Virus record (IMG/VR): IMGVR_UViG_3300033156_000141
Coordinates: 19,092-83,091 of that record
Length of the DNA stretch: 64,000 nt
Source of the DNA: a virus
Taxonomy: Duplodnaviria > Heunggongvirae > Uroviricota > Caudoviricetes
Reading direction: 5' to 3' (one strand)
Below are positions 3,070-53,329 of this stretch, in pieces. The position numbers and the translations under genes are program-made. Each line of letters starts with the position of its first letter. Position 1 is the stretch's first letter. The notes under the pieces are model-generated. The model saw nothing but the letters and a program-made list of their open reading frames with translations. It had not been told where the DNA came from and ran no database searches.

Positions 3070-3341
3070 TTAGAGAGGACTCTGAGAATTCTTATGAGAA
3101 AGCTTAGTAAATCAGATTCGTTTATTTTTTATTTCAATAGGTACTGCTCATGATATAGTGTTTCTATTGTCTAAATTAAAGAGACTTCTAGAAGATAGTA
3201 ACTAACTCGGAATATCATTTGTACATATTACTTATACATTTTAAGTCCAGGTATCTATTTCTCTTCTCTTCTCTTCCTTTTCTTATTCGTTTATTTCTCA
3301 ATACGCTTATATAATTCTATTGCATAAAAAAAAGAATTGGT

Positions 3342-4106
3342 TTATAGCTGTTGAGCTTCGGCTAATCGGCATATTTCAGTTATCATTTCTTCCTTATTGA
3401 TTATCTCAATGTGTTCATTACGTTCTATTGTTTCAACATAGATCCTTAAGAGATGTCTTTTAGCTTCATCGTTCATCTTTGAGTATGCAACTGTTTTAAA
3501 TTTCCAAAATTTAGCATAGATGTTTGTCTTGAATCCATGATGCTTTTCAACCATATTTTCAATTGGATGCCATTTTTCAGTATTACAAAATGTTATCTCT
3601 GATCTCTCGGGAAGCTTTGGGTTAAATTGTGTATCAACTAAACAAATCGGATTTGCTGGCATAAATTTTTTTAGATGTATCATAGCTGTTAGGATTGAAG
3701 CTTTTGTTTGATCCTTGATATAATAAAGATATAGTTTTTTGTCTACCTTTAAGCTCACAAAATATCGTTTAACTGATCTCTTATGTTTGCCCCTTTGAGA
3801 TCTAAAGCTTATCTCTGTGATGTCCATATAGCAATTAGCTTTAGTCGCTAAATGTGTATTGATTCTTTCAACTTTTTTCTTGTGTTCTCTACAGAAGTCT
3901 TTATATTGTTTGTGTATGTTCTTATCTCTTAAGCCTAGTCGCTTTGCATGTCTGTATATCGTTGAGGGGTCAAATTTTAATCCATAGAGTTTTTTAATTT
4001 CTCTTGCTATTTCTCTATAGCTCATTCCATTTTCTTCTAACCAAATTCTCATCTGTTCCTTACTTATGTGTATTTCTCTCGGTCTTGCCATTTTACGTTT
4101 CACCAT
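3342..4106 (-). CDS. HTH-domain mobile nuclease-like ORF (homing-endonuclease-like or transposase-like)
   Basis: Only convincing minus-strand gene. N-terminal HTH (MSYREIAREIKKLYGLKFDPSTIYRHAKRLGLRDK) is paralogous to the HTH of ORFs 29187..29870 and 31119..31652. Flanked by 12-bp inverted repeats TCTATTGCATAA (~3317) and TTATGCAATAGA (~4221). Confidence 0.4.
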   Translation of the reverse strand: MVKRKMARPREIHISKEQMRIWLEENGMSYREIAREIKKLYGLKFDPSTIYRHAKRLGLRDKNIHKQYKDFCREHKKKVERINTHLATKANCYMDITEISFRSQRGKHKRSVKRYFVSLKVDKKLYLYYIKDQTKASILTAMIHLKKFMPANPICLVDTQFNPKLPERSEITFCNTEKWHPIENMVEKHHGFKTNIYAKFWKFKTVAYSKMNDEAKRHLLRIYVETIERNEHIEIINKEEMITEICRLAEAQQL

Positions 4107-4240
4107 TTCGTTTTTGCTTATCCATAGATCATAAGGTATATTTAAGACTTTGGGTATTATCGGAATAAAATCTTAAGCTGATTATGTATTTTTCAACATA
4201 ATTATATAAGCATATTGAATTATGCAATAGACTTAATAAA

Positions 4241-4269
4241 GCTGTTGCATAACCCTAAAACTTATAAAG
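4241..4269 (+). promoter_or_regulatory. promoter repeat copy 1 (partial operator + TATA box CTTATAAAG)
   Basis: Matches TGTTGCATAACCC-N-CTTATAAA consensus shared by 9 intergenic copies; ~30 nt upstream of the gene start. Confidence 0.55.
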
Positions 4270-4299
4270 AGACTTGTCTAGTTGAGAATTGTGATTAAA

Positions 4300-4596
4300 A
4301 TGTTGAGTAGAAAATACTATAAGGCTATAGCTGGGATATTAAGGGTTTCATCTAATAAAAAGGAAATAGTAAAGCGACTATGTAGATACTTTGAGCTAGA
4401 TAATCCTAGATTTGATAAAAACAAATTCCTAGAAGAAGTCTATGGATACAAGACTCCTGATTACTGTGCAGAGAATGACTGTAGCTACTATTTTGAATTT
4501 GGAGAATGTAGATGCTTTGCTCCATGTGAAAAATGTGGAAGAACTACTCTTCACATTAATACTAAGTGCTCTATCTGTGGAACTCCATTGAAGTAA
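4300..4596 (+). CDS. small protein with C-terminal zinc ribbon (CEKCGRT...CSICGT)
   Basis: ORF 4282..4596; first ATG at 4300. Confidence 0.5.
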   Translation: MLSRKYYKAIAGILRVSSNKKEIVKRLCRYFELDNPRFDKNKFLEEVYGYKTPDYCAENDCSYYFEFGECRCFAPCEKCGRTTLHINTKCSICGTPLK

Positions 4597-5531: not shown

Positions 5532-5557
5532 ATGTAGCTTAGTAATTAAAGGTCAAG

Positions 5558-6133
5558 GTGATGTGGATGAGAGTAATAGAGTTAGATGATAATACAATCT
5601 ACATGGACGATGAATCCTTCAAATGCCAAATCGAAGAAGATAAGGACATCTATCTAGGATTGATATGTGAAGCTATTGATTTTAGAGAGATAGACAGTAG
5701 ATTCGATGATGATCCATATCCCGTAGTTGTGGAGACTCAAATCGTAGTAGCTCCAAGATCTCTAGATAGTAACTATCTTGAAAGAGCTAATGAAGGAGTA
5801 GATCTTGAGCTAAACAATGATGAAATTAAAGTCTATGTGTCCTACCGTTATTCTGGAGGAGTTCCTGTAAACATGGAATCTATCAAGGGATCTGTAACTT
5901 GTGATGTAGATTCTGAAGTTAGAACACAAAAGCATAGACTCTATGGAGAGATTAAGGTTAGACACTTCAGAACAGTAGCTGATGCTCTCAAGTATGCTAA
6001 AACAGTCTATAAACACAATGCTCAAGCTGTATTTGGTTTAGTAGGATTCTATCTTGATAGAACATTAAACCTAATAGGGACTACAGGATGGGACATAATA
6101 AATCTACAAGCTAATAATGTCGATTATATGTAG
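5558..6133 (+). CDS. hypothetical protein (191 aa)
   Basis: ORF preceded by promoter repeat 4; followed by a T10 run. Confidence 0.5.
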   Translation: MMWMRVIELDDNTIYMDDESFKCQIEEDKDIYLGLICEAIDFREIDSRFDDDPYPVVVETQIVVAPRSLDSNYLERANEGVDLELNNDEIKVYVSYRYSGGVPVNMESIKGSVTCDVDSEVRTQKHRLYGEIKVRHFRTVADALKYAKTVYKHNAQAVFGLVGFYLDRTLNLIGTTGWDIINLQANNVDYM

Positions 6134-6151
6134 TCTTTTTTTTTTCCTATT

Positions 6152-6198
6152 TTACAACAAGCTTATTAAGTATGTTGCATAACCCCAAGCTTTATAAG
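6152..6198 (+). promoter_or_regulatory. promoter repeat copy 5
   Basis: TTACAACAAGCTTATTAAGTATGTTGCATAACCCCAAGCTTTATAAG directly after an oligo-T terminator. Confidence 0.65.
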
Positions 6199-6230
6199 TC
6201 TAGTTACTAACTATGGTTCGGTGAAATCGG

Positions 6231-6674
6231 ATGTTTGGACTACTTGAAATGTTGGGATTAGCTAGTCAAGTAAAAACAGAGAATATCAAGAAATTCTATT
6301 TTAAGGGACTAGAAGCTACAATAACAGAGTCTAGTGATCCCTCAAAGACCGTTGAGATAGTAATAAGGAAAGAATGGAAATACACAGGATTTGAAAACAT
6401 GGAAGAAGCTCTAGAGTTTGCTGGGGAAAAGACAGCTGAACTTAGCTCTCTTAATGAGCTAAAGCCTATACTAGAGAAAGTCTCTGATCTACTGAGAGAA
6501 TACAACATCAGCTTTGATGAGTTTCTAAAGATAGCTAAGGAAGCTCTTGATGAGAAGATAGAGAGACCTAATCTTCCATTACCACCAAATTTTTTATGGA
6601 CATCAGAACCAGAGAACGAACAAGATATATCGTCTAGTGAAGCTTCTGAACATGAGGATTCAGAAGCTTCCTAG
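6231..6674 (+). CDS. hypothetical protein with acidic/Ser-rich C-terminus (147 aa)
   Basis: ORF preceded by promoter repeat 5. Confidence 0.5.
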   Translation: MFGLLEMLGLASQVKTENIKKFYFKGLEATITESSDPSKTVEIVIRKEWKYTGFENMEEALEFAGEKTAELSSLNELKPILEKVSDLLREYNISFDEFLKIAKEALDEKIERPNLPLPPNFLWTSEPENEQDISSSEASEHEDSEAS

Positions 6675-6691
6675 TTTTTTATGTTTGTATT

Positions 6692-6740
6692 TTACAACAC
6701 TCTTACTAAGCTTGTTGCATAACCACAAGTCTTATAAATA
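6692..6740 (+). promoter_or_regulatory. promoter repeat copy 6
   Basis: TTTACAACACTCTTACTAAGCTTGTTGCATAACCACAAGTCTTATAAATAG. Confidence 0.65.
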
Positions 6741-6753
6741 GATAGTAACTATC
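6741..6753. repeat. GATAGTAACTATC palindrome copy
   Basis: Perfect palindrome between promoter repeat 6 and gene start 6776. Confidence 0.8.
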
Positions 6754-6775
6754 TTTGTTCAACGGTGACTAAAAA

Positions 6776-7126
6776 ATGACTCGTAAGGATCTTCCAAGAA
6801 TCTATTATCGTGATTTTGAGATACATCTATTTCAAGACAAGGAAGAAGATAAAACAACCTATGGAGCTAAGATACACTATTATATATGGACAAGTAGAAA
6901 TGAATCCAAAGGAGAAGTAGTAGCTGAAGCTATCGATACAGTTGATGAGCTAGCTCAAGCAATAGAGAACAAGTATGTTCTAGCAAAGATAGCTAAAGTT
7001 CTTGAAGAACATGACATGGATTTACACGACTTTCTATGGAACATTAAAGCACAAGTAGAATTTGCTGGAGCTATACACATAAATCTGAAGAAAGAATCAG
7101 AGCCTGATAGCTCTGATTCTTCTTGA
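6776..7126 (+). CDS. hypothetical protein with acidic Ser/Asp C-terminal tail (116 aa)
   Basis: ORF preceded by promoter repeat 6. Confidence 0.5.
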   Translation: MTRKDLPRIYYRDFEIHLFQDKEEDKTTYGAKIHYYIWTSRNESKGEVVAEAIDTVDELAQAIENKYVLAKIAKVLEEHDMDLHDFLWNIKAQVEFAGAIHINLKKESEPDSSDSS

Positions 7127-7134
7127 TTTTTTTT

Positions 7135-7182
7135 TACAACAAGCTTATTGAGCTTGTTGCAAAATCCAAAGTCTTAAATACT
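7135..7182 (+). promoter_or_regulatory. promoter repeat copy 7
   Basis: TTACAACAAGCTTATTGAGCTTGTTGCAAAATCCAAAGTCTTAAATAC after a T-run. Confidence 0.6.
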
Positions 7183-7185
7183 AAA

Positions 7186-7198
7186 GATAGTAACTATC
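7186..7198. repeat. GATAGTAACTATC palindrome copy
   Basis: Perfect palindrome between promoter repeat 7 and gene 7215. Confidence 0.8.
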
Positions 7199-7214: not shown

Positions 7215-7625
7215 ATGGTGAAACTAGTAATAGAGTTAGACGATAGCTATAACGGAGATCCAAGCTTCTTTCAGGGACATGGACATGTCTTTGAGAAGGA
7301 AAACTGTGTAGCTTGCTTAGCTGTTGGTTTCTCAATAGACTATCGGGAAACTGTATCAGATATAATCGAAGGTATCAGGGAAGAGCTACCAAATACGGAT
7401 TATGAACCTATAAACGAAGAGCTGTTCAAGAAATATGAAGATGAGATAAGAAATCTATCTGATGAGGATTTTATCAGAGCTTTTAAAGATGCTCTAGAAC
7501 CAAATACAAAGCTAGAGGATAAATTCTTCAGGGATGACTTTGAGATAGACGAAGATATAGACGATGAAATCTATGATCCACCTATGCTATTACTATACTT
7601 CCACATCTATGTAGAGGAAGAATAG
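7215..7625 (+). CDS. hypothetical highly acidic protein (136 aa)
   Basis: ORF preceded by promoter repeat 7. Confidence 0.5.
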   Translation: MVKLVIELDDSYNGDPSFFQGHGHVFEKENCVACLAVGFSIDYRETVSDIIEGIREELPNTDYEPINEELFKKYEDEIRNLSDEDFIRAFKDALEPNTKLEDKFFRDDFEIDEDIDDEIYDPPMLLLYFHIYVEEE

Positions 7626-7647
7626 CTACTATCTTTTTTTTTATTTT

Positions 7648-7694
7648 TCAACAAGCTTACTAAGATTGTTGCATAACCTTAAAGCTTATAAATA
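7648..7694 (+). promoter_or_regulatory. promoter repeat copy 8
   Basis: TTCAACAAGCTTACTAAGATTGTTGCATAACCTTAAAGCTTATAAATAC after a T-run. Confidence 0.65.
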
Positions 7695-7726
7695 CTTTAG
7701 TTGCTATCTCTTTCAAACATTAGGAG

Positions 7727-7966
7727 ATGATAGAATTGGATAAGAGAAAATTTGTAAGTCCATTAAGGATTTCAGATGGAGACTATCTTATTGAAATAGC
7801 TGACGTTAGTGAAAAAGCTGATGAAAAGAAGTATGCCATAGCTATTTGGGAGTTTAGAGTCTATGGAGATGGATTCAAGAGTATCAATGAAGCTCTTAAC
7901 AATGCCTTAGCTACTGTTGAAAAGTTAAGGTTTCAGGAGGAGCTGAACTTTGGAACAACGGACTAA
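7727..7966 (+). CDS. hypothetical protein (79 aa)
   Basis: ORF preceded by promoter repeat 8. Confidence 0.5.
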   Translation: MIELDKRKFVSPLRISDGDYLIEIADVSEKADEKKYAIAIWEFRVYGDGFKSINEALNNALATVEKLRFQEELNFGTTD

Positions 7967-13561: not shown

Positions 13562-13759
13562 GTGCCTAAATGTCCAAAGTGTCATAAAGAAATCAAGTTT
13601 ATAGAAGAGATTACTGTTGCTAGAAAGGTTTCTAGAGTTTATTCAGATAAGACTGAACTCTCATCATACAATGAGAATATCCTTTACAGATGTCCATTGT
13701 GTAAGAGTAGTCTATTTAATGATAGGAGAGATGCTATTAAGTTCTTGAGAGCTGATTAA
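13562..13759 (+). CDS. small zinc-ribbon protein (CPKCHK...CPLCKS)
   Basis: Two CxxC pairs. Confidence 0.45.
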   Translation: MPKCPKCHKEIKFIEEITVARKVSRVYSDKTELSSYNENILYRCPLCKSSLFNDRRDAIKFLRAD

Positions 13760-13765
13760 AGAAAG

Positions 13766-13778
13766 ATAGTAACTATCT
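13766..13778. repeat. GATAGTAACTATC palindrome copy
   Basis: Perfect palindrome; followed by the further palindromes GCTAGCTAGC and GGGCTTAAGCCC upstream of the Ubl gene. Confidence 0.8.
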
Positions 13779-13835
13779 CTAGAGCCGTAGACTAGCTAGA
13801 TATATGCTAGCTAGCTATAAGGGCTTAAGCCCAAA

Positions 13836-14117
13836 GTGATTGACATGCCAAGAGAATGGACTAGCGAAGAAGAGGATGTATGGACTTCAAATGAGCCAGA
13901 AGCTGTCACAGTGATAATCGGTGGTAAGGAAGTCACAGTAGATCCAGAGGAATACTTTGTCGATACCATTAAGTCTCTAGCTAGAGAACATGGTATCGGC
14001 AAATTCGTAGTCAAAGTGGATAGTCGAGAGATATCTCCAGAGGATGCTCCAGAGACATTCGAGGAACTCGATGGTGAGCTAGTGAGAATAGAACCAATTG
14101 ATGAAGCTGGATTATAA
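13836..14117 (+). CDS. ubiquitin-like beta-grasp protein (ThiS/MoaD-like)
   Basis: 93 aa; C-terminal ...LDGELVRIEPIDEAGL resembles ThiS/MoaD tails (L.DGDEV.I.P.VSGG); GC-richer than neighbours; first gene of the Ubl-E2-E1-JAB cluster. Confidence 0.6.
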   Translation: MIDMPREWTSEEEDVWTSNEPEAVTVIIGGKEVTVDPEEYFVDTIKSLAREHGIGKFVVKVDSREISPEDAPETFEELDGELVRIEPIDEAGL

Positions 14118-14183
14118 GCTTCATACTTGGTTCTATTCTACTCTAGTATCCCTCTTTTTTTTTTATGTAAGGAGGATAAGAAA

Positions 14184-15311
14184 TTGAGGTTCATATATGG
14201 TAAGAGAAAGAATGGTGAACCTAGATTTAGATTTAAACTTGATACTGAAGATGAGAAGAATTTAATTGATAAAATAATTACTAACGGATATTACTATTGG
14301 AACAACGAAATAGTCTTATCAACTAATTTAGTAGCTAAAGCTCTGGGTGTAACATGTTATGAGTTTAGACCATTTACTGATGAGATGGATACATCATGGG
14401 AGATTCTTGAAGAAGCTGGATTAGACATAAACAAGAAAGATGATAGGAAAGAACTTGTAAGAGTAGTTAGTAACTATCTTTCTAGAGAGCTTGAAGCTTC
14501 CAAACAGACTGAAGAATATGGTATTTCACTAAATAGTAGAATTCCAGAATTTGATTTAATAGTAGACATAGATCAACCAGTCTATATTTCAATAGGAAAT
14601 AAGATATTTGAAGGTAAGCTGATTAAAGAGAATGCTAATCTTGAGACATATATCAAGAGACGTGTTTCAAACAAAGTCAATAGTCTCAAGAGAGAAGCTA
14701 GAAGTATAATACTAGCTATTCATGAGGAGTATGAACGAAAGCTTGAGGAGATTAGAAGTAAGCTTGATAAGATACTGGAATTTCCAGATTTAACATTTGA
14801 GGAAGCAGCTCAAGGACTAATAATATGGAGAGTTAGATACACGAATAGGGATCATATAGCTGTTGCTAGACACTATAAGTTTAAGATCTCCAAGCTGATC
14901 AACGATGGTAAGATCTACTATTTGAAGGATGATTGGGCTAAAGAAGTGGATGCATTTGTTGTATTCTATCTTGACAAGACAAGAGATGGATATAGGATAG
15001 AAGAAGTATTCTGTGTTAGATCTGATGCATTCTTTAATGCTAGGTTCTATCCAATCCCACATTGCAATGTAGCTACTGGTGGCACTGTGTGTCTAGGGAT
15101 ACGTGATCCAGCTAGAGGTAGAACAGTTAGATCCATGAAAGAATTGATACCGATATTCGATCATGTAGTTGAAATCTTAAGCACAGCTAATAATGATGAT
15201 AGATTTAGAATTAGTGTTCCTTGGATTAATGATATAGTAAGAATGATAAATCAGCATGATTATTCATTTGCAAAAGAATCTCATAGTCTTAAGAAAGCAT
15301 GGAGTGTGTAA
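14184..15311 (+). CDS. E2/UBC-like domain protein with N-terminal extension
   Basis: C-terminal region FYPIPHCNVATGGTVCLGIRD matches the UBC signature HxN[IV]-x-G-x-[IV]-C-L (HPN motif + catalytic Cys); start probably the TTG at 14184 with a GGAGGA SD (track start 14127). Confidence 0.6.
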   Translation: MRFIYGKRKNGEPRFRFKLDTEDEKNLIDKIITNGYYYWNNEIVLSTNLVAKALGVTCYEFRPFTDEMDTSWEILEEAGLDINKKDDRKELVRVVSNYLSRELEASKQTEEYGISLNSRIPEFDLIVDIDQPVYISIGNKIFEGKLIKENANLETYIKRRVSNKVNSLKREARSIILAIHEEYERKLEEIRSKLDKILEFPDLTFEEAAQGLIIWRVRYTNRDHIAVARHYKFKISKLINDGKIYYLKDDWAKEVDAFVVFYLDKTRDGYRIEEVFCVRSDAFFNARFYPIPHCNVATGGTVCLGIRDPARGRTVRSMKELIPIFDHVVEILSTANNDDRFRISVPWINDIVRMINQHDYSFAKESHSLKKAWSV

Positions 15312-15314
15312 AAT

Positions 15315-15980
15315 ATGTATTCAAGACAAGGCGAGTTAAAACTACACATACCACATAAGGTAGGAATAATAGGATGTGGTGGAATAGGCACATGGGTAGC
15401 TATTTACTCAGCTATGTCTGGAGTAGATACTATCTATTTATTCGATGATGACTTCGTGGACATAACCAATCTAAATAGACTACCATATCCCAAAAACGTA
15501 ATAGGAGAGAAGAAAGCTAAGGTTCTGAGAGATTATATTATATCGATTAGACCAGATGCTACAGTATTTGCTATAGAGAGAAGAATTGTTGAAGAAACAG
15601 CTGATCTTCTAGGTCAGTGTGATATAGTCTTTGATACAACTGATAGTTCAAAAGCTCATAAGATAATAGAACGACTTTGGAGAAGAATGCACTTTACTCT
15701 TATCAGAGCTTCTTATGATGGAGAGCATGTTACAGTAGCTAAAAACTATAAGCTATCTGAGATAGCATGGGGTGAAGATCAAGAAGGATACAATATAGTT
15801 CCTAGTTGGGTTATTCCAGCTAGTTTCATAGCTCAGATAGCATGTTGGTTAGCATACTCTGATAAAGCTCCAAGTTCATTTCTGTCAAATAAAGAGATGA
15901 TGGAGATAGTAACTAAGATCATAGGTGATAGAAATGAAAGAGTATGGAAAATTAAAGGAATCGAAGAAGAGTCAGAATAA
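15315..15980 (+). CDS. E1-like ThiF/MoeB-family adenylyltransferase
   Basis: KVGIIGCGGIGTWVAIYSAMSGVDTIYLFDDDFVDITNLNRLPY = Rossmann GxGxxG + the NLNRQ-type E1 motif. Confidence 0.8.
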   Translation: MYSRQGELKLHIPHKVGIIGCGGIGTWVAIYSAMSGVDTIYLFDDDFVDITNLNRLPYPKNVIGEKKAKVLRDYIISIRPDATVFAIERRIVEETADLLGQCDIVFDTTDSSKAHKIIERLWRRMHFTLIRASYDGEHVTVAKNYKLSEIAWGEDQEGYNIVPSWVIPASFIAQIACWLAYSDKAPSSFLSNKEMMEIVTKIIGDRNERVWKIKGIEEESE

Positions 15981-16842
15981 GATAACAAAATACACGAACT
16001 ATAAGAAGAAAAATACAGTATGGTCTGATGACAATAGACACACATACTGTCCATACAAAGACTCTAAAGAAGTAGAGATTCCATGGGATATATTCTCAAG
16101 AATAGTATTGCTAGTAGAAGAGTATTCTACAGAGTGGCTAGCTTATCTAGACTATGAAGAGACAGATAATGGATTCATAGTTAAGGACATAATTATACCA
16201 GAACAAGAAGTTACTAGCTCTTCAGTATCAGTTACAAATCCTGATATAGGAGTAGGCAAGGGTGTAATACACTATCATCCTTTCAAGAATGGAGCATGGC
16301 ACTCTAGCACAGATGAGGAATATGTTGATTGTAATCATCCATTTTCGATAGTAGTAGATGACAATCTTAACTTCAAAGCTAGGGTAGCTATGGAAGTTCC
16401 ATGTGGATGTGTATTGACTGGAGATGGAGAAGTAAGCATTTTACTTACTGATGAAATAGAGAAGTTCCTAGAGAACACAGAAAAGAAGATTAGAGAGAAA
16501 AAGTATTGCAGTGTCTATACTGGTTATGGAGGTTTTCCTTACTATAATTACTCTAAAACTAGTAAACAAAAGGATGAGATAATAATAGACTTTATAGATG
16601 ATGAGAAATCTATTAGTGCCAAGTGTAGAATATTCGATGAACAATGTAAATGGGCTGAAGATAAAGAGGATGCATGGTGTGTTGATATCGGATACTGTAT
16701 CAAGAAGGGTATTGATATTACAGATGAGCTTCTATCAGAGAAGCTTACAAAGGATGAGCTTAAAGAGATAGAGAACGACATTGAAACGTTAAAAGGAGTT
16801 GGAGTATCAAAGATAGCTCCAGAAGAAGTAGAAGGTAGGTGA
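15925..16842 (+). CDS. JAB/MPN (JAMM) metalloprotease domain protein with Cys-rich C-terminal region
   Basis: EEYSTEW... then HYHPFKNGAWHSSTDEE = JAMM-like Glu + HxH-x8-S-x2-D zinc site; overlaps the E1 stop by ~55 nt. Confidence 0.7.
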   Translation: MIEMKEYGKLKESKKSQNKITKYTNYKKKNTVWSDDNRHTYCPYKDSKEVEIPWDIFSRIVLLVEEYSTEWLAYLDYEETDNGFIVKDIIIPEQEVTSSSVSVTNPDIGVGKGVIHYHPFKNGAWHSSTDEEYVDCNHPFSIVVDDNLNFKARVAMEVPCGCVLTGDGEVSILLTDEIEKFLENTEKKIREKKYCSVYTGYGGFPYYNYSKTSKQKDEIIIDFIDDEKSISAKCRIFDEQCKWAEDKEDAWCVDIGYCIKKGIDITDELLSEKLTKDELKEIENDIETLKGVGVSKIAPEEVEGR

Positions 16843-16848
16843 TTAAAG

Positions 16849-17052
16849 ATGAGACTTGACACAAATCCTGATAAATGTCCAAAGTGTGGTAGCACTAAAC
16901 GTAATTATTCCTTGACCATAGGCAAGCTAGTATGTGGTAATTGTGGAGAGATAATACGAGATATGGTCAAAGAAGAGTGGCAAGAGCTATTTCCTGAGAT
17001 AACAGATGAAGATTGGGAGTCTTGGTTTGGTAAAGAGGATCAAAATGTGTAA
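16849..17052 (+). CDS. small zinc-ribbon protein (CPKCGS...CGNCGE)
   Basis: Two CxxC pairs. Confidence 0.45.
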   Translation: MRLDTNPDKCPKCGSTKRNYSLTIGKLVCGNCGEIIRDMVKEEWQELFPEITDEDWESWFGKEDQNV

Positions 17053-26942: not shown

Positions 26943-28220
26943 ATGGTAATCGGAGGTAATGATATGTCTGAAGAAATAATACATGACTTAGAGAGACCAA
27001 TATATGTAGTAGACCATAAGCAGCTGATAGACATAATAAAGAAAACATATGAAGTACAGGGATCTCTATTTATTCAAGGAGCTATAGGAATAGGTAAATC
27101 GTATACAGTGAGAGAAGCTGCTAGACAGCTAGCTAATGAATATTCACTTGACTTTCTAGAGACAAAAGCTCCTATACTTCATCCAGATAAGTTCTGTCTA
27201 GTGGATCAGAGATTCTCTCAGAAGGATGCTGGTGAAGTGTTAGGACTACCAGAGGACTATGCTATAGTAAAATACAATGGACATATAGAGCTTGTACCAA
27301 TAAAACACTTTGATATATTCACAGCTAGATGGAATGGTGAGTATGAAATAATAGACTATACAACCAAATGGACAGCTCCAGTATGGTTTCCTAGAGAAGG
27401 TAGAGGCATAATATTTGCAGATGAGCTACCACTAGCACCACCACTAGTCAGAAATGCAATATGGGAGCTTATCAATGATAGAGCTCTAGGAGATTATGAA
27501 TTACCAGATGGTTGGATAGTGGTAGCAGCTGGTAACAGAGGACATATAGATGGATGTCCAGAATTTAGATTTGAAGCTCCATTATGCAATAGATTTGCAT
27601 GGTATGAACTAGAAACACCAACTGTAGAAGAATGGACTCCTTGGGCAGTAGACAATGACATAGATCCTAGAATCATATCGTTTCTAAGAGTCAAGACATC
27701 CAATATCTATACATTTAATCCAAAGAGCAAAGAGAAAGCTTTTGCTACACCTAGAGCTTGGGAGAAAGTAAGTGATATGATTAAAGGAGTAGAAGACTTA
27801 GACAAAGTGTTTATGTATGCTAGTGGCAGAGTTGGATCTTATGTAGCTCAAGAGTTTGTATCGTTTCTAAGAATGAGAGACAGATTAGCTCCTCCAGAAG
27901 AGTTCATTAGAAATCCAGATAAAATAGAGATACCTAAAGAAAACGATCTATTATATGCTCTATGCACTAACCTTACAGAGTATCTTTACTACTACGTAAA
28001 GAACAAGCCTGAAGATAAAGCTAGAGAGGTTCTTAGAAGAATATTCATAATCGGAGATAGAATACCTAGAGAATACTGTGCATTTATGCTAAAGATGATA
28101 AAGAGCATGGTACCTGATTTCTTTGATAGAAACGTACTGAAGCTTAAAGAATGGAGTCTATTTGTTCCAACAATAGGAAAATATATATTAGCTATGGAGA
28201 GAGAAGATGAGGATGAGTAG
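26943..28220 (+). CDS. MoxR-family AAA+ ATPase
   Basis: Walker A GAIGIGKS, Walker B GIIFADELP, sensor VVAAGNRG; immediately upstream of a VWA protein (canonical MoxR-VWA pair). Confidence 0.8.
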   Translation: MVIGGNDMSEEIIHDLERPIYVVDHKQLIDIIKKTYEVQGSLFIQGAIGIGKSYTVREAARQLANEYSLDFLETKAPILHPDKFCLVDQRFSQKDAGEVLGLPEDYAIVKYNGHIELVPIKHFDIFTARWNGEYEIIDYTTKWTAPVWFPREGRGIIFADELPLAPPLVRNAIWELINDRALGDYELPDGWIVVAAGNRGHIDGCPEFRFEAPLCNRFAWYELETPTVEEWTPWAVDNDIDPRIISFLRVKTSNIYTFNPKSKEKAFATPRAWEKVSDMIKGVEDLDKVFMYASGRVGSYVAQEFVSFLRMRDRLAPPEEFIRNPDKIEIPKENDLLYALCTNLTEYLYYYVKNKPEDKAREVLRRIFIIGDRIPREYCAFMLKMIKSMVPDFFDRNVLKLKEWSLFVPTIGKYILAMEREDEDE

Positions 28221-28222
28221 AT

Positions 28223-30508
28223 ATGTCTCCAGAAGAGAAGATTACTAAAGCTAGAGTTCAGATGATATCTAAACAGCCATTCTTTGGAGTGCTATGTATG
28301 TCACTGAGATTCAAACCAGATCCCAATGAAGATACAGCAGCTGTTACTCCTTATGGTGTTGTGTACTATAATCCAGACTATATCAAGAAATTGACTACTG
28401 AACAAGTAAAAGGATTGATATGCCATGAAGTAATGCATGTAGCTCTTAGACATCTAGAAAGAGAAGAAGGAAGAGATCATTTCAAAGCTAATATAGCTCA
28501 AGATCTAGCAATAAACCCACTAATACTACAGACATTTCAACTACCACCAGGAGCTCTATACATGAGAGAATATGAAGGTATGTCATGGGAAGAGATATAT
28601 GATAAATTATCAGATCCTAAGAGATTTGAGTGTAATGGAGACTGTGATAACTGTCCATTTAAACAGAAGAATCCTAATGGATTTGGTGGAGTACCATCAG
28701 TAGTTGTAGTGTGTAGAAAACGTGGTAGCTTAGACAAACATGTAACTAGAAAAGACATAGAAGAAGCTAGAAGAAAAGTAGAGGATGGTGTTATATCAAG
28801 GTCTGACTTAGATAAGCTAGGGATACCAAAAGGTGCTTTAGATGATAAAGAAACTGTGAATTGGAGAAAAGTACTGAAAGATGCATGGCATCATGCTAAA
28901 TGTTTAGATCCAAACACACAAATTCTAATGGCAGACAAATCCTTCAAAAGAATAACAGATGTCAAGAAAGGTGATGAAATACTAGGAATTGATGAGAATG
29001 GCAACATTGCTAAAGGAGTAGTCCTTCAGAAGTTCAGAACCATTGTTAATCAGAAAGTTACTATTGAAGCTAGTAATGGTTCAAAGCTGGTTTGTTCACC
29101 TGAGCACTTCATATATAATGGTAAATTCACTAAAGCTGAGGACTTAGACTTAAATACCACATTACCTATAGTAACTATGATTAGCAATGAGGAAGTGGAC
29201 TCAAGGAGAGATAGAATATCTGAAACAAAACTATGGAGTGAAGTCACTAACTCAGATATCAAAGGAGCTCAAGAGAACAAGAATATCTGTGTACAAGAAA
29301 GCTCACAGACTGGGACTGAAACCAAAACTAAAATCTCTAGAGACAATAAACTATTATCGTCCTCAAATATCAGAGAAGGATATAGCTTACTTAGCAGGAT
29401 TGATAGATGGAGAGGGAACAATAACTATCCAAGTCAGAAGGTCTCCAAGAAAGATAAGAGACAAATATGGAAGAATAATAAAGATTTATCAGAATCATTC
29501 TTATACTCCAATCATTTCAATATTCAATACTTCAGAGACTCTAATGGACTGGATGAGGAAACTGGGATGGAATGTACAAGTAACAAAACCAAAGAATCCA
29601 CGTTATCAGACCAAGTACCATTTCTACATTTGTGGATACGGGATTCTTCCATTTCTAGAACAAATAGAACCTTATCTAAGAATCAAGAAAATACACGCAA
29701 GGATATGCATTTTGTGGATTCTAGAGAGACTGGAACAGAACAGACTGGACAAACCAACAGAGAAGATGAAAGAGTACTTGAACGATCTTCAGATATTAAA
29801 CCAGAGAAAAGATGGGTATCAATTAAGCAAATTAAGAAGGAAGATACTAGAGAAGTATTCTATGATCTAAAGACAAGCTTGGGAAACTACATAGCAAATG
29901 GCTTTATTGTTCATAATAGTATGGGTAAAGCTCCATTAGGTATTGAAAGACTTATAGAAGACCTAGTAGAACCACAGATCAATTGGTTAGAATATCTACC
30001 TCAGCTTATTGTAAGACATATGCCTTATGACTACACATACTCTAGACCTTCTAAGAAATCGATAGCTGCTGGATACTATCTACCAAGTGTACTAAAGTCA
30101 GGAATAAAAGGAGTAGTAGTTATAGATACATCTGGCTCTATGAGTATGGAAGATTTAAGAGATGGATTATCACAGATAATAGGAATATTCAGAGAAGTAC
30201 CTAATGCAGAACTTACTATCTATAGCTGTGATGCAATGCTGTATGAAGCTCAAACTATTACATCAGAATACGACTTAAACACATTACAACTCAAGGGTGG
30301 AGGAGGTACAGACTTTAGACCTATGTTTCAGAAAATCCAAGAAGGTGGAGATGATGTTGATCTACTAATCTATATTACTGATGGATATGGAGAATATCCT
30401 ACACCAGATATGATAAATCCAAATATGACAGTAATATGGGTTATTACTAGAGATGGTGATGAAACTAGAGTACCAGACTACTTTGATCTAGTAGTGAAGA
30501 TAAAATGA
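28223..30508 (+). CDS. VWA-domain protein with N-terminal HExxH metallopeptidase-like domain (DUF2201-like), interrupted by an intein
   Basis: HEVMHVALRH (HExxH); MIDAS VVVIDTSGSMSMEDL; intein blocks CLDPNTQIL... and ...FYDLKTSLGNYIANGFIVHN|S. Confidence 0.75.
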   Translation: MSPEEKITKARVQMISKQPFFGVLCMSLRFKPDPNEDTAAVTPYGVVYYNPDYIKKLTTEQVKGLICHEVMHVALRHLEREEGRDHFKANIAQDLAINPLILQTFQLPPGALYMREYEGMSWEEIYDKLSDPKRFECNGDCDNCPFKQKNPNGFGGVPSVVVVCRKRGSLDKHVTRKDIEEARRKVEDGVISRSDLDKLGIPKGALDDKETVNWRKVLKDAWHHAKCLDPNTQILMADKSFKRITDVKKGDEILGIDENGNIAKGVVLQKFRTIVNQKVTIEASNGSKLVCSPEHFIYNGKFTKAEDLDLNTTLPIVTMISNEEVDSRRDRISETKLWSEVTNSDIKGAQENKNICVQESSQTGTETKTKISRDNKLLSSSNIREGYSLLSRIDRWRGNNNYPSQKVSKKDKRQIWKNNKDLSESFLYSNHFNIQYFRDSNGLDEETGMECTSNKTKESTLSDQVPFLHLWIRDSSISRTNRTLSKNQENTRKDMHFVDSRETGTEQTGQTNREDERVLERSSDIKPEKRWVSIKQIKKEDTREVFYDLKTSLGNYIANGFIVHNSMGKAPLGIERLIEDLVEPQINWLEYLPQLIVRHMPYDYTYSRPSKKSIAAGYYLPSVLKSGIKGVVVIDTSGSMSMEDLRDGLSQIIGIFREVPNAELTIYSCDAMLYEAQTITSEYDLNTLQLKGGGGTDFRPMFQKIQEGGDDVDLLIYITDGYGEYPTPDMINPNMTVIWVITRDGDETRVPDYFDLVVKIK
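28901..29917 (+). other. intein (339 codons) within the VWA gene; Cys1 at 28901, terminal HN at 29912..29917, +1 Ser
   Basis: Block A CLDPNTQILMADKS, block B SKLVCSPEHFIY (TxxH-like), block F/G EVFYDLKT...ANGFIVHNS in the host reading frame. Confidence 0.7.
29187..29870 (+). CDS. LAGLIDADG homing endonuclease with N-terminal HTH, encoded in the +1 frame inside the intein
   Basis: IAYLAGLIDGEGTITIQ; N-terminal HTH GEIEYLKQNYGVKSLTQISKELKRTRISVYKKAHRLGLK; a different frame from the host ORF, which nevertheless stays open. Confidence 0.65.
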   Translation: MRKWTQGEIEYLKQNYGVKSLTQISKELKRTRISVYKKAHRLGLKPKLKSLETINYYRPQISEKDIAYLAGLIDGEGTITIQVRRSPRKIRDKYGRIIKIYQNHSYTPIISIFNTSETLMDWMRKLGWNVQVTKPKNPRYQTKYHFYICGYGILPFLEQIEPYLRIKKIHARICILWILERLEQNRLDKPTEKMKEYLNDLQILNQRKDGYQLSKLRRKILEKYSMI

Positions 30509-31086: not shown

Positions 31087-31742
31087 GATTTATACAAGAC
31101 ACTTTCCAAGTATCTTGTATGAAATTCACAACAGAAGAACTAGAGTTTATCAAATTAAACCATTCTAAGATGACGATTAAAGAGATAGCACAAGCATTAA
31201 ACAAAGATCCTCGTAGAGTATCAGAAGCAGCTATTTCATTAGGTCTAAGGAAATATCCTAAACGTGGTACTAAAGTATCTAAAAGATGTGAACAGTGTGG
31301 TCAGCTCTTCTTCAAAGGATATAGAGAATCCAGATCTCATTTCAGCTCTAGAAGATTTTGTAGTGTTGAGTGTTTTAGAGAATATATGAAAGAACATAGG
31401 AATGAAACATTTCCTAGTAACATTCATGAGATGTGTGCAAATGGAAGAAGAGCTGAACGAGAGGCGTACAAATTACTTAAGAACGAATTTGATTTCTTAG
31501 CTAAGAGTGTCTCGATATGTGACTACATTGGAGTCAAGGACAACAAGATATACTTAATAGAGATTAAGTACAAGAATGCTAAGTTATCAAAGAAACAGAA
31601 GAAAGCATACAAGGTACTTGGAGAGTGTTATAAGGTTGTTAGAATTAGCTAGTACTCCTCCAAGGCACAGATCCATATGCAGAGTACCCCGCTATTAAGT
31701 GCTTTACCTCTGATCAGTTAGAAGCTACTATAGATATTATGG
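31085..31742 (+). mobile_element. putative group I-type intron (or HEG cassette) interrupting the SPFH gene, carrying nuclease ORF 31119..31652
   Basis: Exon sequences are contiguous at the protein level (…DRVLA|(L/M)VRWSLDP matches the SPFH consensus V.VDAVV.YRV.DP). The insert changes the frame (length not a multiple of 3), and begins after a U and ends in G if the boundaries are 31085/31742. Confidence 0.4.
31119..31652 (+). CDS. HTH + zinc-ribbon + PD-(D/E)xK-like nuclease (homing-endonuclease-like)
   Basis: N-terminal HTH EELEFIKLNHSKMTIKEIAQALNKDPRRVSEAAISLGLRKY is paralogous to the LAGLIDADG ORF HTH; CEQCGQ...CSVEC; C-terminal ICDYIGVKDNKIYLIEIKYK (D...E.K). Confidence 0.5.
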   Translation: MKFTTEELEFIKLNHSKMTIKEIAQALNKDPRRVSEAAISLGLRKYPKRGTKVSKRCEQCGQLFFKGYRESRSHFSSRRFCSVECFREYMKEHRNETFPSNIHEMCANGRRAEREAYKLLKNEFDFLAKSVSICDYIGVKDNKIYLIEIKYKNAKLSKKQKKAYKVLGECYKVVRIS

Positions 31743-32356
31743 TACGATGGAGTCTAGATCCGACTAAGCTCAAAGAACTTTACTTGTCATATCCAAACTT
31801 AGATTGGGAAGACAGAGCTATAGCTTCTACTGTGAGAGAGACTATTAGATTTGTTACTAAGAACTTTACAGCTACACAGATGATAACTAGAAGAGAAGAA
31901 GTGGCATATGCTATTCAAGAAGCTGTATTCGATGCTCTACATAGTACGGAATCTCTTAAAGGAGCTTTAGTGCATCTAGAGTTCGACCTCAGAAACATAG
32001 CATTACCAGAGAAATACATGCAAGCTATCGAAGATAAGATGGTAGCTGAGCAACAGAAGATACAAGCGGAATTTGAGAGAGAACGTATATTGGTTCTAGC
32101 TGATGCAGAGGCACAACAGAAGATACGAATAGCTGAAGCTGAGGCTGAGACTAGACTGATAGTTGCTAATGCTACTAGAGAATCTATAGAGATGATAGCT
32201 AGAGCAGCTGGTATCGATGATGCAGAGGACTTAGCAGAGCTGTATCTATATCTAGAAGCACTTAAGGAAATAGCACCAAATGTAGATGTTCTAATAGTAT
32301 CTACAGATGAACAGGGAAATCCAATAATATACTCTCTACCAAAGTCTGGTAAGTAG
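31739..32356 (+). CDS. SPFH/band-7 protein, C-terminal fragment
   Basis: VRWSLDPTKLKELYLSY..., IQAEFERERILVLADAEAQQKIRIAEAEAETRLIVANA = SPFH domain + characteristic AEAEA coiled coil. Confidence 0.6.
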   Translation: MVRWSLDPTKLKELYLSYPNLDWEDRAIASTVRETIRFVTKNFTATQMITRREEVAYAIQEAVFDALHSTESLKGALVHLEFDLRNIALPEKYMQAIEDKMVAEQQKIQAEFERERILVLADAEAQQKIRIAEAEAETRLIVANATRESIEMIARAAGIDDAEDLAELYLYLEALKEIAPNVDVLIVSTDEQGNPIIYSLPKSGK

Positions 32357-34903: not shown

Positions 34904-35208
34904 GTGGGAAATATATGTTCAAAAGAATCGAAATACCAAACAACTACGATGAGAAGGCACTTCGAGAAGAGTTAAAGAAGATACTAAAAGTCACAGACTA
35001 TATAGCTATATGTGCAGTATTAATTTATCAGTACTCAGAAACCCCATGTAAAGATGGTAAAGAATACAGACTTAGACTATTTCAAGTGGATATTGATAAG
35101 ATAGAGATTCATAATGGACGAGCTATGATTCGTAGTAGCAATATACCAGATCTTGATCTAGAGATGGATCAATATTTAGAAGTAATGCTGATGAGGAGAT
35201 TTGAATGA
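34900..35208 (+). CDS. hypothetical protein, related to the N-terminal half of the 35205/35755 paralogs
   Basis: YIAICAVLIYQYSETPCKDGKEYRLRLFQVDIDKIEIHNG vs LAIVEYIYTYSKVPLAEDYDKERVYYEIDPDDIEIKDVNG. Confidence 0.45.
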   Translation: MSGKYMFKRIEIPNNYDEKALREELKKILKVTDYIAICAVLIYQYSETPCKDGKEYRLRLFQVDIDKIEIHNGRAMIRSSNIPDLDLEMDQYLEVMLMRRFE

Positions 35209-35768
35209 TACATCCAAACTGTTCTGAGCTTGTTGTAAAGGTTGGATTTGAAAATATAGATGATTTAAAGAGTTTAATAAAGTGGATACTAGAGGAGACA
35301 GCTTCTGTTCTAGCTATAGTTGAATATATCTATACCTATTCTAAAGTTCCTTTAGCTGAAGACTATGACAAAGAAAGAGTATACTATGAGATCGATCCAG
35401 ATGATATTGAAATAAAAGATGTAAATGGAGAGAGATATCTTGGAATAGACATAAACAAACTACCACAAAGCTTATCAAAGAAACTACCATCATGGCTAAC
35501 ATACGGAAACATGGTATCTGTATATATTTCAAAAGGTAGGGGTTCAGTACTTCTAGATCTGGATGATGATTTTGTGGAGTTCTCTATAAGTGATGGAGAT
35601 GAAAAATCTTACAAAATATTTGCAGATATTTCTAGAGTACTTATAGCTTCACCATTTCCTAACGATGGAGGATCTATCTCATACTTTCTGGAATGGTGTA
35701 AGAAGAACGGATATGAAGACATAGTAAAGGATTGTGCATATTGGGGTTATGTAGATGATACATCCTAA
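35205..35768 (+). CDS. hypothetical protein, paralog A (starts MIHPNCSELVV)
   Basis: Shares an identical N-terminal 11-mer and a C-terminal EWCKKNGY region with 35755..36294. Confidence 0.5.
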   Translation: MIHPNCSELVVKVGFENIDDLKSLIKWILEETASVLAIVEYIYTYSKVPLAEDYDKERVYYEIDPDDIEIKDVNGERYLGIDINKLPQSLSKKLPSWLTYGNMVSVYISKGRGSVLLDLDDDFVEFSISDGDEKSYKIFADISRVLIASPFPNDGGSISYFLEWCKKNGYEDIVKDCAYWGYVDDTS

Positions 35769-36294
35769 TTGTTCAGAGCTGGTTGTTCATCTTACGGATA
35801 GCTATGAGAATTTAGAAACTATTTTACAAGAGATAATGAACATTACCAAGACTAAACTATGTGGATTTTATCAATGTATATTCTATTCAGATATTCCTCT
35901 AGCTGAGAAACAGAGTCGTAAGACCATAGTATTCCCAATATCTCTTGACGATATAAAGTTCTTTAGTGTCTTTGGTAAACCGAGATATCCTTATGTGAGT
36001 GCTGACTCTGTACCAGAAGAAGTTAGAATAAAATACCCACCATCAGAGATATTTATTGAGCTAGGTTTGACACCTGATTTCAGATCAATTATAAAACTTG
36101 AGTATGATTTTACGGCAGGCTTTCATCTGGAGATTTGGGATTGTGAGACAGAGTTATACGACCTAATAATGAAAATAGCACTACATCTAAATCGAAAGAT
36201 AGTAGATTGGAGTAGTACAGGAGACTTTACGGAATGGTGTGAGAAACATGGATATAAGTCGTTAATAGAGATAGGATGGGATGATAATGATTGA
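35755..36294 (+). CDS. hypothetical protein, paralog B (starts MIHPNCSELVV)
   Basis: Synonymous DNA differences beneath the identical N-terminal peptide; C-terminal TEWCEKHGY. Confidence 0.5.
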   Translation: MIHPNCSELVVHLTDSYENLETILQEIMNITKTKLCGFYQCIFYSDIPLAEKQSRKTIVFPISLDDIKFFSVFGKPRYPYVSADSVPEEVRIKYPPSEIFIELGLTPDFRSIIKLEYDFTAGFHLEIWDCETELYDLIMKIALHLNRKIVDWSSTGDFTEWCEKHGYKSLIEIGWDDND

Positions 36295-37087
36295 AGTGTT
36301 ATCGATACATTTTACTACTAAATGCAATTTCAATTGTCCATTCTGCTATGTTCATAAGTCTACTATAGAGAAAGATGTAGATTGGTTCTGTGATCTAATA
36401 AAGGCAGCTAGTGAATATAATATTCCACAGATAGCTATAGGTGGTGGAGAACCACTATTATTTCCAAAGATAGTAACTAAACTAGCTAAAACAGCTAAGC
36501 ACTGTGATATGAATGTATCTCTTACTACAAATGGTTCAGTAATAAATTCAGAAGTAATTGAATCATTAGAATACGTAGATTTGGTATCAGTATCGGTGGA
36601 TCATCATAAGGTTAAGTCTAATGGTTCAATACGAAACATAGCTAATACAATAAATATCTTATCTAATTTATCTAAGTTGGAAGTAGGAGTAAACTATCTT
36701 ATTCTAGATAAGATAGCTCTTGGAATCATGCCTTTAGTCTTTAATTATCTAAAGAAAGAAGGACTAAAATTCTATGCCTTGCAACCTAAATTCTACGAGC
36801 TGAATTATGAAGTTAGTGAACTAAAGAGAACCATTGAAATTTCAAGTGTATTATTTGACTTGTATGTGGATGAAAGTACAGCTCTTGAAATTGGGAAGAT
36901 AAAGCAATGTTGTCATGGTAGCAAGATAATATCAGTATTTCCAGATGGTTCAGTATCTCCATGTTCATTTAGTCCATCTATAGCTAAGATTAAAAAACCA
37001 CATGAAATACTAAATATAATAGATAGTTACTATCCTATGAAGGGCTATTCCAAATGTCCCTACATCATTAGGAGTCTTGAAACATGA
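36281..37087 (+). CDS. radical SAM enzyme with C-terminal SPASM/twitch-like Cys cluster
   Basis: CNFNCPFC (CxxxCxxC), IGGGEPLL, C-terminal CCHGSKIISVFPDGSVSPCSF...CPY. Confidence 0.7.
   Translation: MIMIEVLSIHFTTKCNFNCPFCYVHKSTIEKDVDWFCDLIKAASEYNIPQIAIGGGEPLLFPKIVTKLAKTAKHCDMNVSLTTNGSVINSEVIESLEYVDLVSVSVDHHKVKSNGSIRNIANTINILSNLSKLEVGVNYLILDKIALGIMPLVFNYLKKEGLKFYALQPKFYELNYEVSELKRTIEISSVLFDLYVDESTALEIGKIKQCCHGSKIISVFPDGSVSPCSFSPSIAKIKKPHEILNIIDSYYPMKGYSKCPYIIRSLET
37022..37034. repeat. GATAGTTACTATC palindrome copy inside the radical SAM CDS
   Basis: Perfect palindrome encoding DSYYP. Confidence 0.8.
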
Positions 37088-53127: not shown

Positions 53128-53329
53128 GATAGTTACTAAGTCTGGATACAAGATAATACAGGAAACATATAGAGTATGGAAGATCATATCTCCTAAAGGA
53201 AAGTTATACTATGTATGGTTGTGTAACAATAAGCTTGTATGTTCATGTCCTGCTTATTCGAAATATAGAGGACATTGTAAACACATAATGATGATGAATT
53301 TGTATGTATTTAAGGAGGGAATGAAATGA
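53117..53329 (+). CDS. SWIM zinc-finger protein
   Basis: CSCPAYSKYRGHCKHIMMM = CxCxnCxH SWIM signature. Confidence 0.55.
   Translation: MVAEIVTKSGYKIIQETYRVWKIISPKGKLYYVWLCNNKLVCSCPAYSKYRGHCKHIMMMNLYVFKEGMK

Follow-up and report, generated by a model that had tools for sequence, protein, structure and literature searches.

Prokaryotic ubiquitin-like conjugation has so far been characterized as host antiviral immunity, in the Cap2 enzymes of CBASS and in the Bil and Bub systems, and the locus described here raises the question of whether a virus of prokaryotes can carry such a system complete in itself. The locus lies in a stretch of 64,000 nucleotides (nt) of a tailed virus (IMG/VR record IMGVR_UViG_3300033156_000141, positions 19,092 to 83,091), hereafter called the window, whose own numbering we use throughout. 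The original prediction had placed in it four consecutive co-oriented genes encoding a ubiquitin-like modifier (Ubl), an E2-like conjugating enzyme, a ThiF-type E1 and a JAB deubiquitinase, and this arrangement is borne out as a run of tightly packed open reading frames (ORFs). We consider it probable that these genes make up a self-contained Ubl protein-conjugation cassette of a tailed, probably archaeal, virus.

All four genes lie on the plus strand and are present in one copy apiece within the 64-kb window. The Ubl gene ends at 14117 and starts at an ATG at 13845 (90 amino acids [aa]) or a GTG at 13836 (93 aa), the ATG being the likelier since it is the start kept in homologues. The E2-like gene (14184 to 15311, 375 aa), the coordinates of which had been given correctly, begins with a TTG preceded by AGGAGG and is followed by the E1 gene (15315-15980, 221 aa). 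The JAB gene runs to 16842 from an ATG at 15934 (302 aa), the start used by the homologues P0004-6, or from a GTG at 15925 (305 aa). The Ubl and E2-like genes are separated by 66 nt and the E2-like and E1 genes by 3 nt, while the E1 and JAB genes overlap by 47-56 nt; given the shared orientation, the short gaps and the overlap, the four genes form a single operon. The motifs first quoted for these proteins (FYPIPHCNVATGGTVCLG, GCGGIGT...NLNRL and HYHPFKNGAWHSSTDEE) are all found, while the start first assigned to the module, 13766, falls in the upstream non-coding region.

The same order of small ORF, E2-like, ThiF and JAB genes recurs in the loci L001-L012, where the E2-like protein is 24-79% identical to that of the window. 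Because this order recurs across loci, the arrangement is far above chance. A scan with the E1 alignment gave at least 131 relatives from viral contigs of IMG/VR and 77 from contigs of genomes or metagenome-assembled genomes (MAGs), and hidden Markov model searches of the ORFs at the loci of E1 relatives gave ∼40 loci with an E1 and a JAB gene, usually accompanied by Ubl and E2-like genes as well. At these ∼40 loci the E2-like genes encode HPN...C or HYH...C motifs, and the small upstream ORFs mostly have Gly or Ala at or within 2-3 residues of the C terminus. All-against-all clustering of the loci returned only the four cassette families as recurrent, and neither an E3 nor an effector nor any other fifth gene is conserved among them. 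Among the carriers are viral contigs of ∼53-108 kb as well as short contigs from bins of Thermoplasmata, Archaeoglobales, Desulfurococcales and Bathyarchaeota; the bacterial ones come from Ignavibacteria, Bacteroidota, Acholeplasmataceae and Zixibacteria. Single-sequence scans of the Ubl, E2-like and JAB proteins against Pfam, PHROGs, PADLOC and NCBIfam returned no significant match, and profile searches of the PDB with shallow alignments were likewise without a match; these four collections miss three of the four cassette proteins despite their recurrence on many uncultivated viral contigs. The cassette is an unannotated family of prokaryotic Ubl-conjugation systems, carried by viruses.

The genes around the cassette vary between loci. 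On one viral contig (L096) a TROVE/Ro60-like gene with a vWA domain lies beside it (5538-7196), and on an Ignavibacteria chromosomal contig (L018) its neighbors are an opposite-strand gene for a class-V aminotransferase of the cysteine-desulfurase family (3216-4346) and a gene for a DUF2958 protein (7471-7794). DUF2958 is a family typical of integrative and conjugative elements and plasmids.

The E2-like family is tiny, with 12 proteins recovered when 1.84 billion representative proteins were searched with a profile, and a tblastn search with the window's protein against 50,697 phage records found no match. In an AlphaFold2 (AF2) model built from 13 sequences, with a predicted local distance difference test score (pLDDT) of 79.5 overall, an alpha/beta domain (residues ∼1-110) is followed by a low-confidence linker, a 44-residue helix (153-196) and a UBC-fold domain (∼200-375), of which residues 200-370 score mostly 77-94 per 10-residue block. 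When this model was compared with the PDB by Foldseek, E2 enzymes occupied seven of the top eight positions, with a best E-value of 0.054 and none significant. The putative active site reads H293-C-N295...C303-L-G, with the Cys303 codon at 15090-15092. In an hhalign comparison, YPIPHCNVATGGTVCLG of the E2-like protein is paired with TRIYHPNINSNGSICLD of human UBE2D2; Cys303 falls on the catalytic C85 and H293-C-N295 on H75-P-N77, and the spacing from Asn to Cys is equal. Cys303 is invariant in 13 of 13 sequences and is the sole fully invariant residue among 21 broader homologues, several distant members having His or another residue at the position of N295. Individual family members also gave weak Pfam matches to Prok-E2_D (0.0014) and UQ_con (0.006). 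No conserved His downstream of Cys303 was found in the homologue alignments. We conclude that the C-terminal domain is a UBC fold with a catalytic Cys preceded by an HPN-type motif. The original prediction had named beforehand, as findings that would speak against it, a C-terminal region lacking the UBC fold or homologues lacking the Cys; a UBC fold with a conserved Cys is what the searches returned.

With eukaryotic and Caldiarchaeum-type E2s (UQ_con) the protein shares the UBC fold and the string H-P/C-N-[IV]-x3-G-x-[IV]-C-L. It departs from canonical E2s in its ∼7-15% identity, a score below the Pfam threshold and a large N-terminal addition, and its setting departs from the canonical pathway in an E1 without UFD or catalytic Cys and in having no RING/E3. 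The region before the UBC fold measures ∼200 aa, shorter than the ∼280 aa first estimated. In the model, its first 60 residues (14184-14370) follow a beta-beta-alpha-beta-beta order, and the N-terminal domain might itself be beta-grasp-like, for example as a docking domain standing in for the missing E1 UFD; a profile comparison of the region with the Ubl showed no relation. Four tandem genes of 371-381 aa, paralogous to one another and situated directly upstream of the cassette on the 12-kb contig L002 (2061-6571), were considered as paralogues of the E2-like gene and rejected, with 12-14% identity and no match at the active site.

A word-based search with the Ubl returned one homologue only, and its conservation was read from an alignment of the small ORFs that precede each E2 homologue. 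In this alignment P87, D89, A91 and G92 are invariant. The window's protein ends in ...EPIDEAG-L, with the Gly92 codon at 14109-14111, whereas homologues end exactly in ...DEAG in two clusters and carry one extra residue (L, Y or H) or two (YC) in the others. An AF2 model from 21 sequences has a core with a pLDDT of ∼80, in the order beta-beta-alpha-beta-beta-short helix-beta, and a floppy tail, and its fold matches include BilA and MoaD2/ThiS. The model and its matches uphold the earlier assignment of the 93-aa protein as a beta-grasp, and we describe it as a predicted beta-grasp modifier with a flexible tail ending in, or processed to, Gly. The conserved Gly with zero to two trailing residues, together with the linked JAMM protease, is a sequence pattern consistent with pre-processing. 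At the other end, residues 1-22 (13845-13910) form an acidic, disordered tail with two Trp residues. At least 90% of the 21 homologues in the alignment keep W16, whereas W8 is limited to the closer relatives, a pattern that suggests a short linear binding motif.

The E1 is the one cassette protein recognized by standard models. It matches Pfam ThiF (PF00899) at 2.6e-26, with 92.7 bits against a cut-off of 28.1, as the original prediction would have it, and PADLOC Cap2 E1-E2 models match it at up to 1.7e-16 in their E1 part only. Profile matches in the PDB include ThiF, MccB, TcdA, SAE2, MoeB, UBA3, UBA1, Cap2 and BubCD, all through the Rossmann half only, and this search gave the E1 profile no special affinity to BubCD, Cap2 or any one E1 family. 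From 9 close and 37 broad homologues, the key residues can be read as the GCGGIG loop (G20-x-G22-G23-x-G25), D44/D46, N52-L-N-R55, K67 and D110; D46, N52, K67 and D110 are present in all 37 broad homologues and the Gly-rich loop, D44 and R55 in 35 or 36 of them. These features place the protein in the E1/ThiF-MoeB adenyltransferase superfamily. The protein is a single domain, without the IAD, CYS and UFD domains or a CxxC zinc site, and the family ranges only from 202 to 223 aa. Among the 9 close and 37 broad homologues there is no conserved Cys outside the glycine-rich loop. After the adenylation core, Y134-D-G is conserved, as is G158-Y159 (35 of 37 homologues), Tyr159 being nearly invariant.

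The E1 also scores below the curated cut-off of all NCBIfam E1 families (ThiF, MoeB, UbaA, PRTRC and 6A-MBL), with 21.8 against 144.75 bits for PRTRC_ThiF, 49.7 against 450 for UbaA, 78.9 against 159 for ThiF and 58 against 266 for MoeB. Membership of the PRTRC, SAMP/UbaA, ThiF and MoeB equivalogs is ruled out by these scores. They also bear on the proposal that the Ubl is a sulfur carrier of the ThiS, MoaD, TtuB or CysO type, adenylated by the E1 and then acting as thiocarboxylate donor in the modification of a nucleoside or cofactor, for which the JAB protein would only unmask the C terminus, as in CysO/Mec+ and QbsE/QbsD. The best sequence matches of the E1 are ThiF, TcdA and MoeB, it has no catalytic Cys, MoaD2/ThiS appear among the Ubl fold matches, a radical-SAM enzyme is encoded elsewhere in the window, and the aminotransferase on L018 adjoins a bacterial relative of the cassette on the opposite strand. 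However, such a pathway has no use for a UBC-fold protein with an active-site Cys as its sole invariant residue, which is strictly linked here, and the E1 stays under the cut-offs of the ThiF, MoeB and UbaA equivalog models. Moreover, rhodanese, ThiI/TtuA/NcsA, MoaE and ThiG genes are not conserved beside the cassette at the ∼40 loci, direct scans for such partners covering some of the window's ORFs and family clustering the other loci. We regard the sulfur-carrier explanation as very improbable.

The JAB protein could be placed once its alignment was diverse enough: a 10-sequence profile gave only sub-threshold JAMM matches, and significance was reached only with 24 diverse sequences. With these, the matches comprise AMSH-like sst2 (1.6e-9), STAMBP (3e-6), Rpn11 (∼1e-4), CSN5, BilC (0.007) and AfJAMM (0.027). 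The residues predicted to be catalytic, E70, H116-x-H118, S127 and D130 (codons between 16132 and 16314), are the sole invariant residues in the 24-sequence alignment. The spacer of the JAMM motif has 8 residues in the window's subfamily and 7, giving the exact HxH-x7-S-xx-D, in many relatives, and one family member matches Pfam Prok-JAB at 0.013. An hhalign comparison of the alignment with an AfJAMM sequence was uninformative. Both the invariant residues and the profile matches sustain the first assignment, and the protein is predicted to be a JAMM/MPN+ metalloprotease. Its N terminus is basic with an invariant CP motif and its C-terminal tail is Cys-rich; the Cys-rich region, which the original prediction had also described, is present in the window's protein and its closest relatives (P0004-P0007) and absent from more distant homologues.

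From the folds, catalytic residues, gene linkage and conservation observed for these four proteins, we infer a series of chemical steps and their targets. The JAMM protease would first trim Leu93 after the conserved Ala-Gly of the Ubl, exposing Gly92. The 221-aa E1, presumably a homodimer like ThiF and MoeB, would then adenylate Gly92 with ATP. Since no Cys of the E1 is conserved other than in the glycine-rich loop, we propose that Cys303 of the E2 receives the tag either straight from the adenylate or through an oxyester on the E1, for which Tyr159 is the candidate residue by analogy with the Tyr oxyester of Bub. The E2∼Ubl thioester would then deliver the tag onto lysines of target proteins. 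Because no E3 is encoded, the conserved ∼200-aa N-terminal part of the E2 may select the target or dock the E1. The JAMM protease may also deconjugate; the JAB gene is retained even where the relatives' Ubl already ends at Gly.

Several observations weigh against this scheme. A thioester site was looked for in the E1 and none was identified, so that the hand-off from E1 to E2 is speculative. The Ubl ends in Ala-Gly and not in Gly-Gly, no target, E3 or effector could be identified, and the virus that carries the cassette is uncultivated.

What would a virus gain from such a system? We tentatively favor a pro-viral role, in which the cassette tags proteins of the host or of the virus itself in the course of infection. 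It is also quite possible, although we put this forward with some reserve, that viruses thereby encode a complete "ubiquitination" pathway with a Cys-less mini-E1, a eukaryote-type E2 and an N-terminal domain replacing the E3, directed at host proteins such as defense or proteostasis factors.

The same biochemistry could instead serve a Bil-like conflict between viruses, in which structural proteins of a superinfecting rival, for instance a tail or tail-fiber protein, are tagged and the rival thus excluded, or could belong to a host-type defense that hitch-hikes on viruses and integrated elements. The parts list is that of BilABCD, whose Ubl is attached to a phage virion structural protein. 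Like BilABCD (operon types 6D and 6C/CEHH), the cassette pairs a beta-grasp Ubl with three enzymes, namely a ThiF-family E1, a UBC-fold E2 with a catalytic Cys and a JAMM deubiquitinase. The Ubl of either system is a precursor that extends past a conserved Gly, and an E3 is encoded by neither. BilC has been shown experimentally to remove the residues of BilA past the conserved Gly, and our JAB profile detects BilC just as the Ubl model matches BilA. Related cassettes are also found on bacterial chromosomal contigs, one of them with the DUF2958 neighbor. The defining features of the two Bil enzymes, however, are missing. BilD is a large E1 with inactive and active adenylation domains, a CYS domain with the catalytic Cys and a four-Cys zinc site, whereas the cassette E1 is a bare 221-aa adenylation domain without a conserved Cys outside the glycine-rich loop. 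In BilB a conserved His comes after the conserved catalytic Cys, and the classical His is missing from the 6D-type E2, which we take to be that of Type I Bil; the cassette E2, in contrast, has a classical H-x-N eight residues before the Cys, no conserved His downstream and an N-terminal extension of ∼200 aa. The gene order is different, and Bil operons reside in bacterial defense islands while this cassette is carried by viruses. The cassette is thus Bil-like in composition and fails Bil membership for both E1 and E2.

Other observations also speak against conflict or defense. No PADLOC defense model matches the Ubl, E2-like or JAB protein, the family keeps the N-terminal region of the E2 fairly constant whereas a domain that tracks rivals would be expected to be hypervariable, and the cassette sits on long lytic-type viral contigs (∼53-108 kb) amid replication-type genes. 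We therefore judge this explanation rather unlikely, and keep to a pro-viral role as the preferred one.

The original prediction had assigned the gene set to the Bil/"6E" architecture. Of this, the Bil parts list stands, the defining features of the Bil E1 and E2 do not, and "6E" denotes the Bub type, which is not matched. Bub (6E) systems have a serine E2, a poly-Ubl, JAB-E1 or E2-E1 fusions and a DUF6527 serine protease, while the cassette has a Cys E2, separate ORFs, a single Ubl domain and no fifth conserved gene. Type II CBASS resembles the cassette in that Cap2 models detect its E1 (1.7e-16) and both have a JAMM partner; Cap2, however, is an E2-E1 fusion that conjugates the CD-NTase and not a Ubl, and neither a CD-NTase nor a CBASS effector was found among the neighbors of the cassette. 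The archaeal SAMP/UbaA/HvJAMM and Urm1 systems likewise combine, in an archaeal setting, a beta-grasp tag and a JAMM protease with an E1 of the ThiF type. SAMP systems are not known to include an E2, their tags have Gly-Gly at the C terminus, and the cassette E1, at 49.7 bits, is far from the UbaA cut-off of 450.

Single components of such pathways have been described elsewhere. The Nidhogg viruses of Helarchaeota (Asgard) encode E1 homologues only, which are presumed to exploit the Ubl and E2 of the host, and the report on them describes no complete virus-encoded cassette. Borgs carry multicopy JAMM proteases. In the full-text literature that we searched, which leaves subscription literature outside, there is no description of a complete Ubl-E2-E1-JAB cassette in a prokaryotic virus.

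The genes of the window support the viral setting. Among them are genes for a large terminase, a family-B DNA polymerase (PolB), a ParB-like protein and an RNA ligase. One strand carries nearly all of the genes, the GC content is 32-36% and no tRNAs were found in the 64 kb. The window is that of a tailed virus. In a phage collection, the PolB matches covering 80-98% of the query are haloarchaeal tailed viruses at ∼21-22% identity, and on the strength of these matches and other features of the window an archaeal host is likely. The archaeal viral setting proposed earlier is thereby supported as probable, by the terminase, the PolB resembling that of haloarchaeal viruses, RadA and the relatives on viral contigs and in archaeal MAG bins.

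That the virus is tailed also bears on a role in virion assembly or maturation, in which the Ubl would be joined to, or would chaperone, the virus's own structural proteins and the JAB protein would release it, in analogy to the tail-assembly Ubl gpI and the JAB/NlpC protein gpK of lambda. A Ubl with a C-terminal Gly and a JAB peptidase is an established theme of phage tail assembly, as in the lambda K and I genes. Nevertheless, the lambda-type systems require no E1 and no E2, and the cassette does not lie in a structural gene block, and its neighborhood changes between loci. A structural role appears improbable to us, and tagging of host or viral proteins during infection remains the reading that we tentatively favor.

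If the cassette is active, viruses of prokaryotes themselves wield ubiquitin-like tagging, and a minimal E1 works without a conserved catalytic Cys outside the glycine-rich loop, which bears on the evolution of the transfer from E1 to E2. Were it used to tag host proteins, the cassette would be to viruses what the Bil, Bub and CBASS conjugation systems are to bacteria, and it could carry E2 and Ubl modules between archaea, bacteria and their viruses. That a module borne by viruses has an E2 with the classical HPN-Cys active site also bears on the debates about the origin of eukaryotic-type E2s. As a compact system of four genes in ∼3 kb, the cassette is open to direct testing in vitro.

Two conserved elements accompany the coding sequences, both on the plus strand. 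The first is a non-coding element at 13783-13835, ahead of the Ubl gene, in which GCCGTAGA is accompanied by two palindromes, CTAGCTAG...CTAGCTAG (13792-13817) and GGGC-loop-GCCC. The element is kept in L001, L003 and L004, where changes in the arms leave the palindromes intact, and its conservation extends to L003 and L004 even though their E2-like proteins (P0002 and P0003) are only 45-47% identical to that of the window. It could serve the cassette as a promoter/operator or as a 5′ leader.

The second is a long hairpin across the Ubl stop codon (14083-14165, including a T10 run), with a 13-bp outer and an 8-bp inner stem. The T10 run lies at 14155-14165, ∼14 nt 3′ of the hairpin, and the ribosome-binding site of the E2-like gene comes next. 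The RNA has a minimum free energy of −35.2 kcal/mol (z = −7.7), none of 200 shuffled sequences folding as well, and the hairpin is kept in L001, L003 and L004, where two of its base pairs show compensatory changes. It may act as an attenuator, a terminator or a stabilizer of the mRNA that would set the ratio of Ubl to enzymes, and attenuated read-through could yield the Ubl in excess of the enzymes. A scan for sigma-70 promoters gave counts at or below background, and a scan for terminator-like sites gave three against 1.3 expected, one of which is the inner stem of this hairpin.

The cassette was first described as sitting between zinc-ribbon ORFs, and the ORFs at 13562-13759 and 16849-17052 do both encode CxxC...CxxC zinc-ribbon-like proteins. 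The upstream one (65 aa) has homologues in four cassette loci (L001, L004, L007 and L103), where its position varies, and its link with the cassette is weak. The other neighbors are small uncharacterized ORFs, an HNH/NUMOD3 homing-type endonuclease (18795-19451) and the RNA ligase. Further away, the window encodes a RadA/Rad51 recombinase (53326-55209), which is interrupted by an intein and carries an endonuclease-like insert, and a likewise intein-interrupted DUF2201 metallopeptidase/VWA protein (28223-30508) that follows a MoxR-type ATPase (26943-28220). An SPFH/Band-7 protein is encoded at 31739-32356. The radical-SAM gene mentioned above (36281-37087) is preceded by two overlapping ORFs (35205-36294), and together they may form a cluster for nucleoside or DNA modification.

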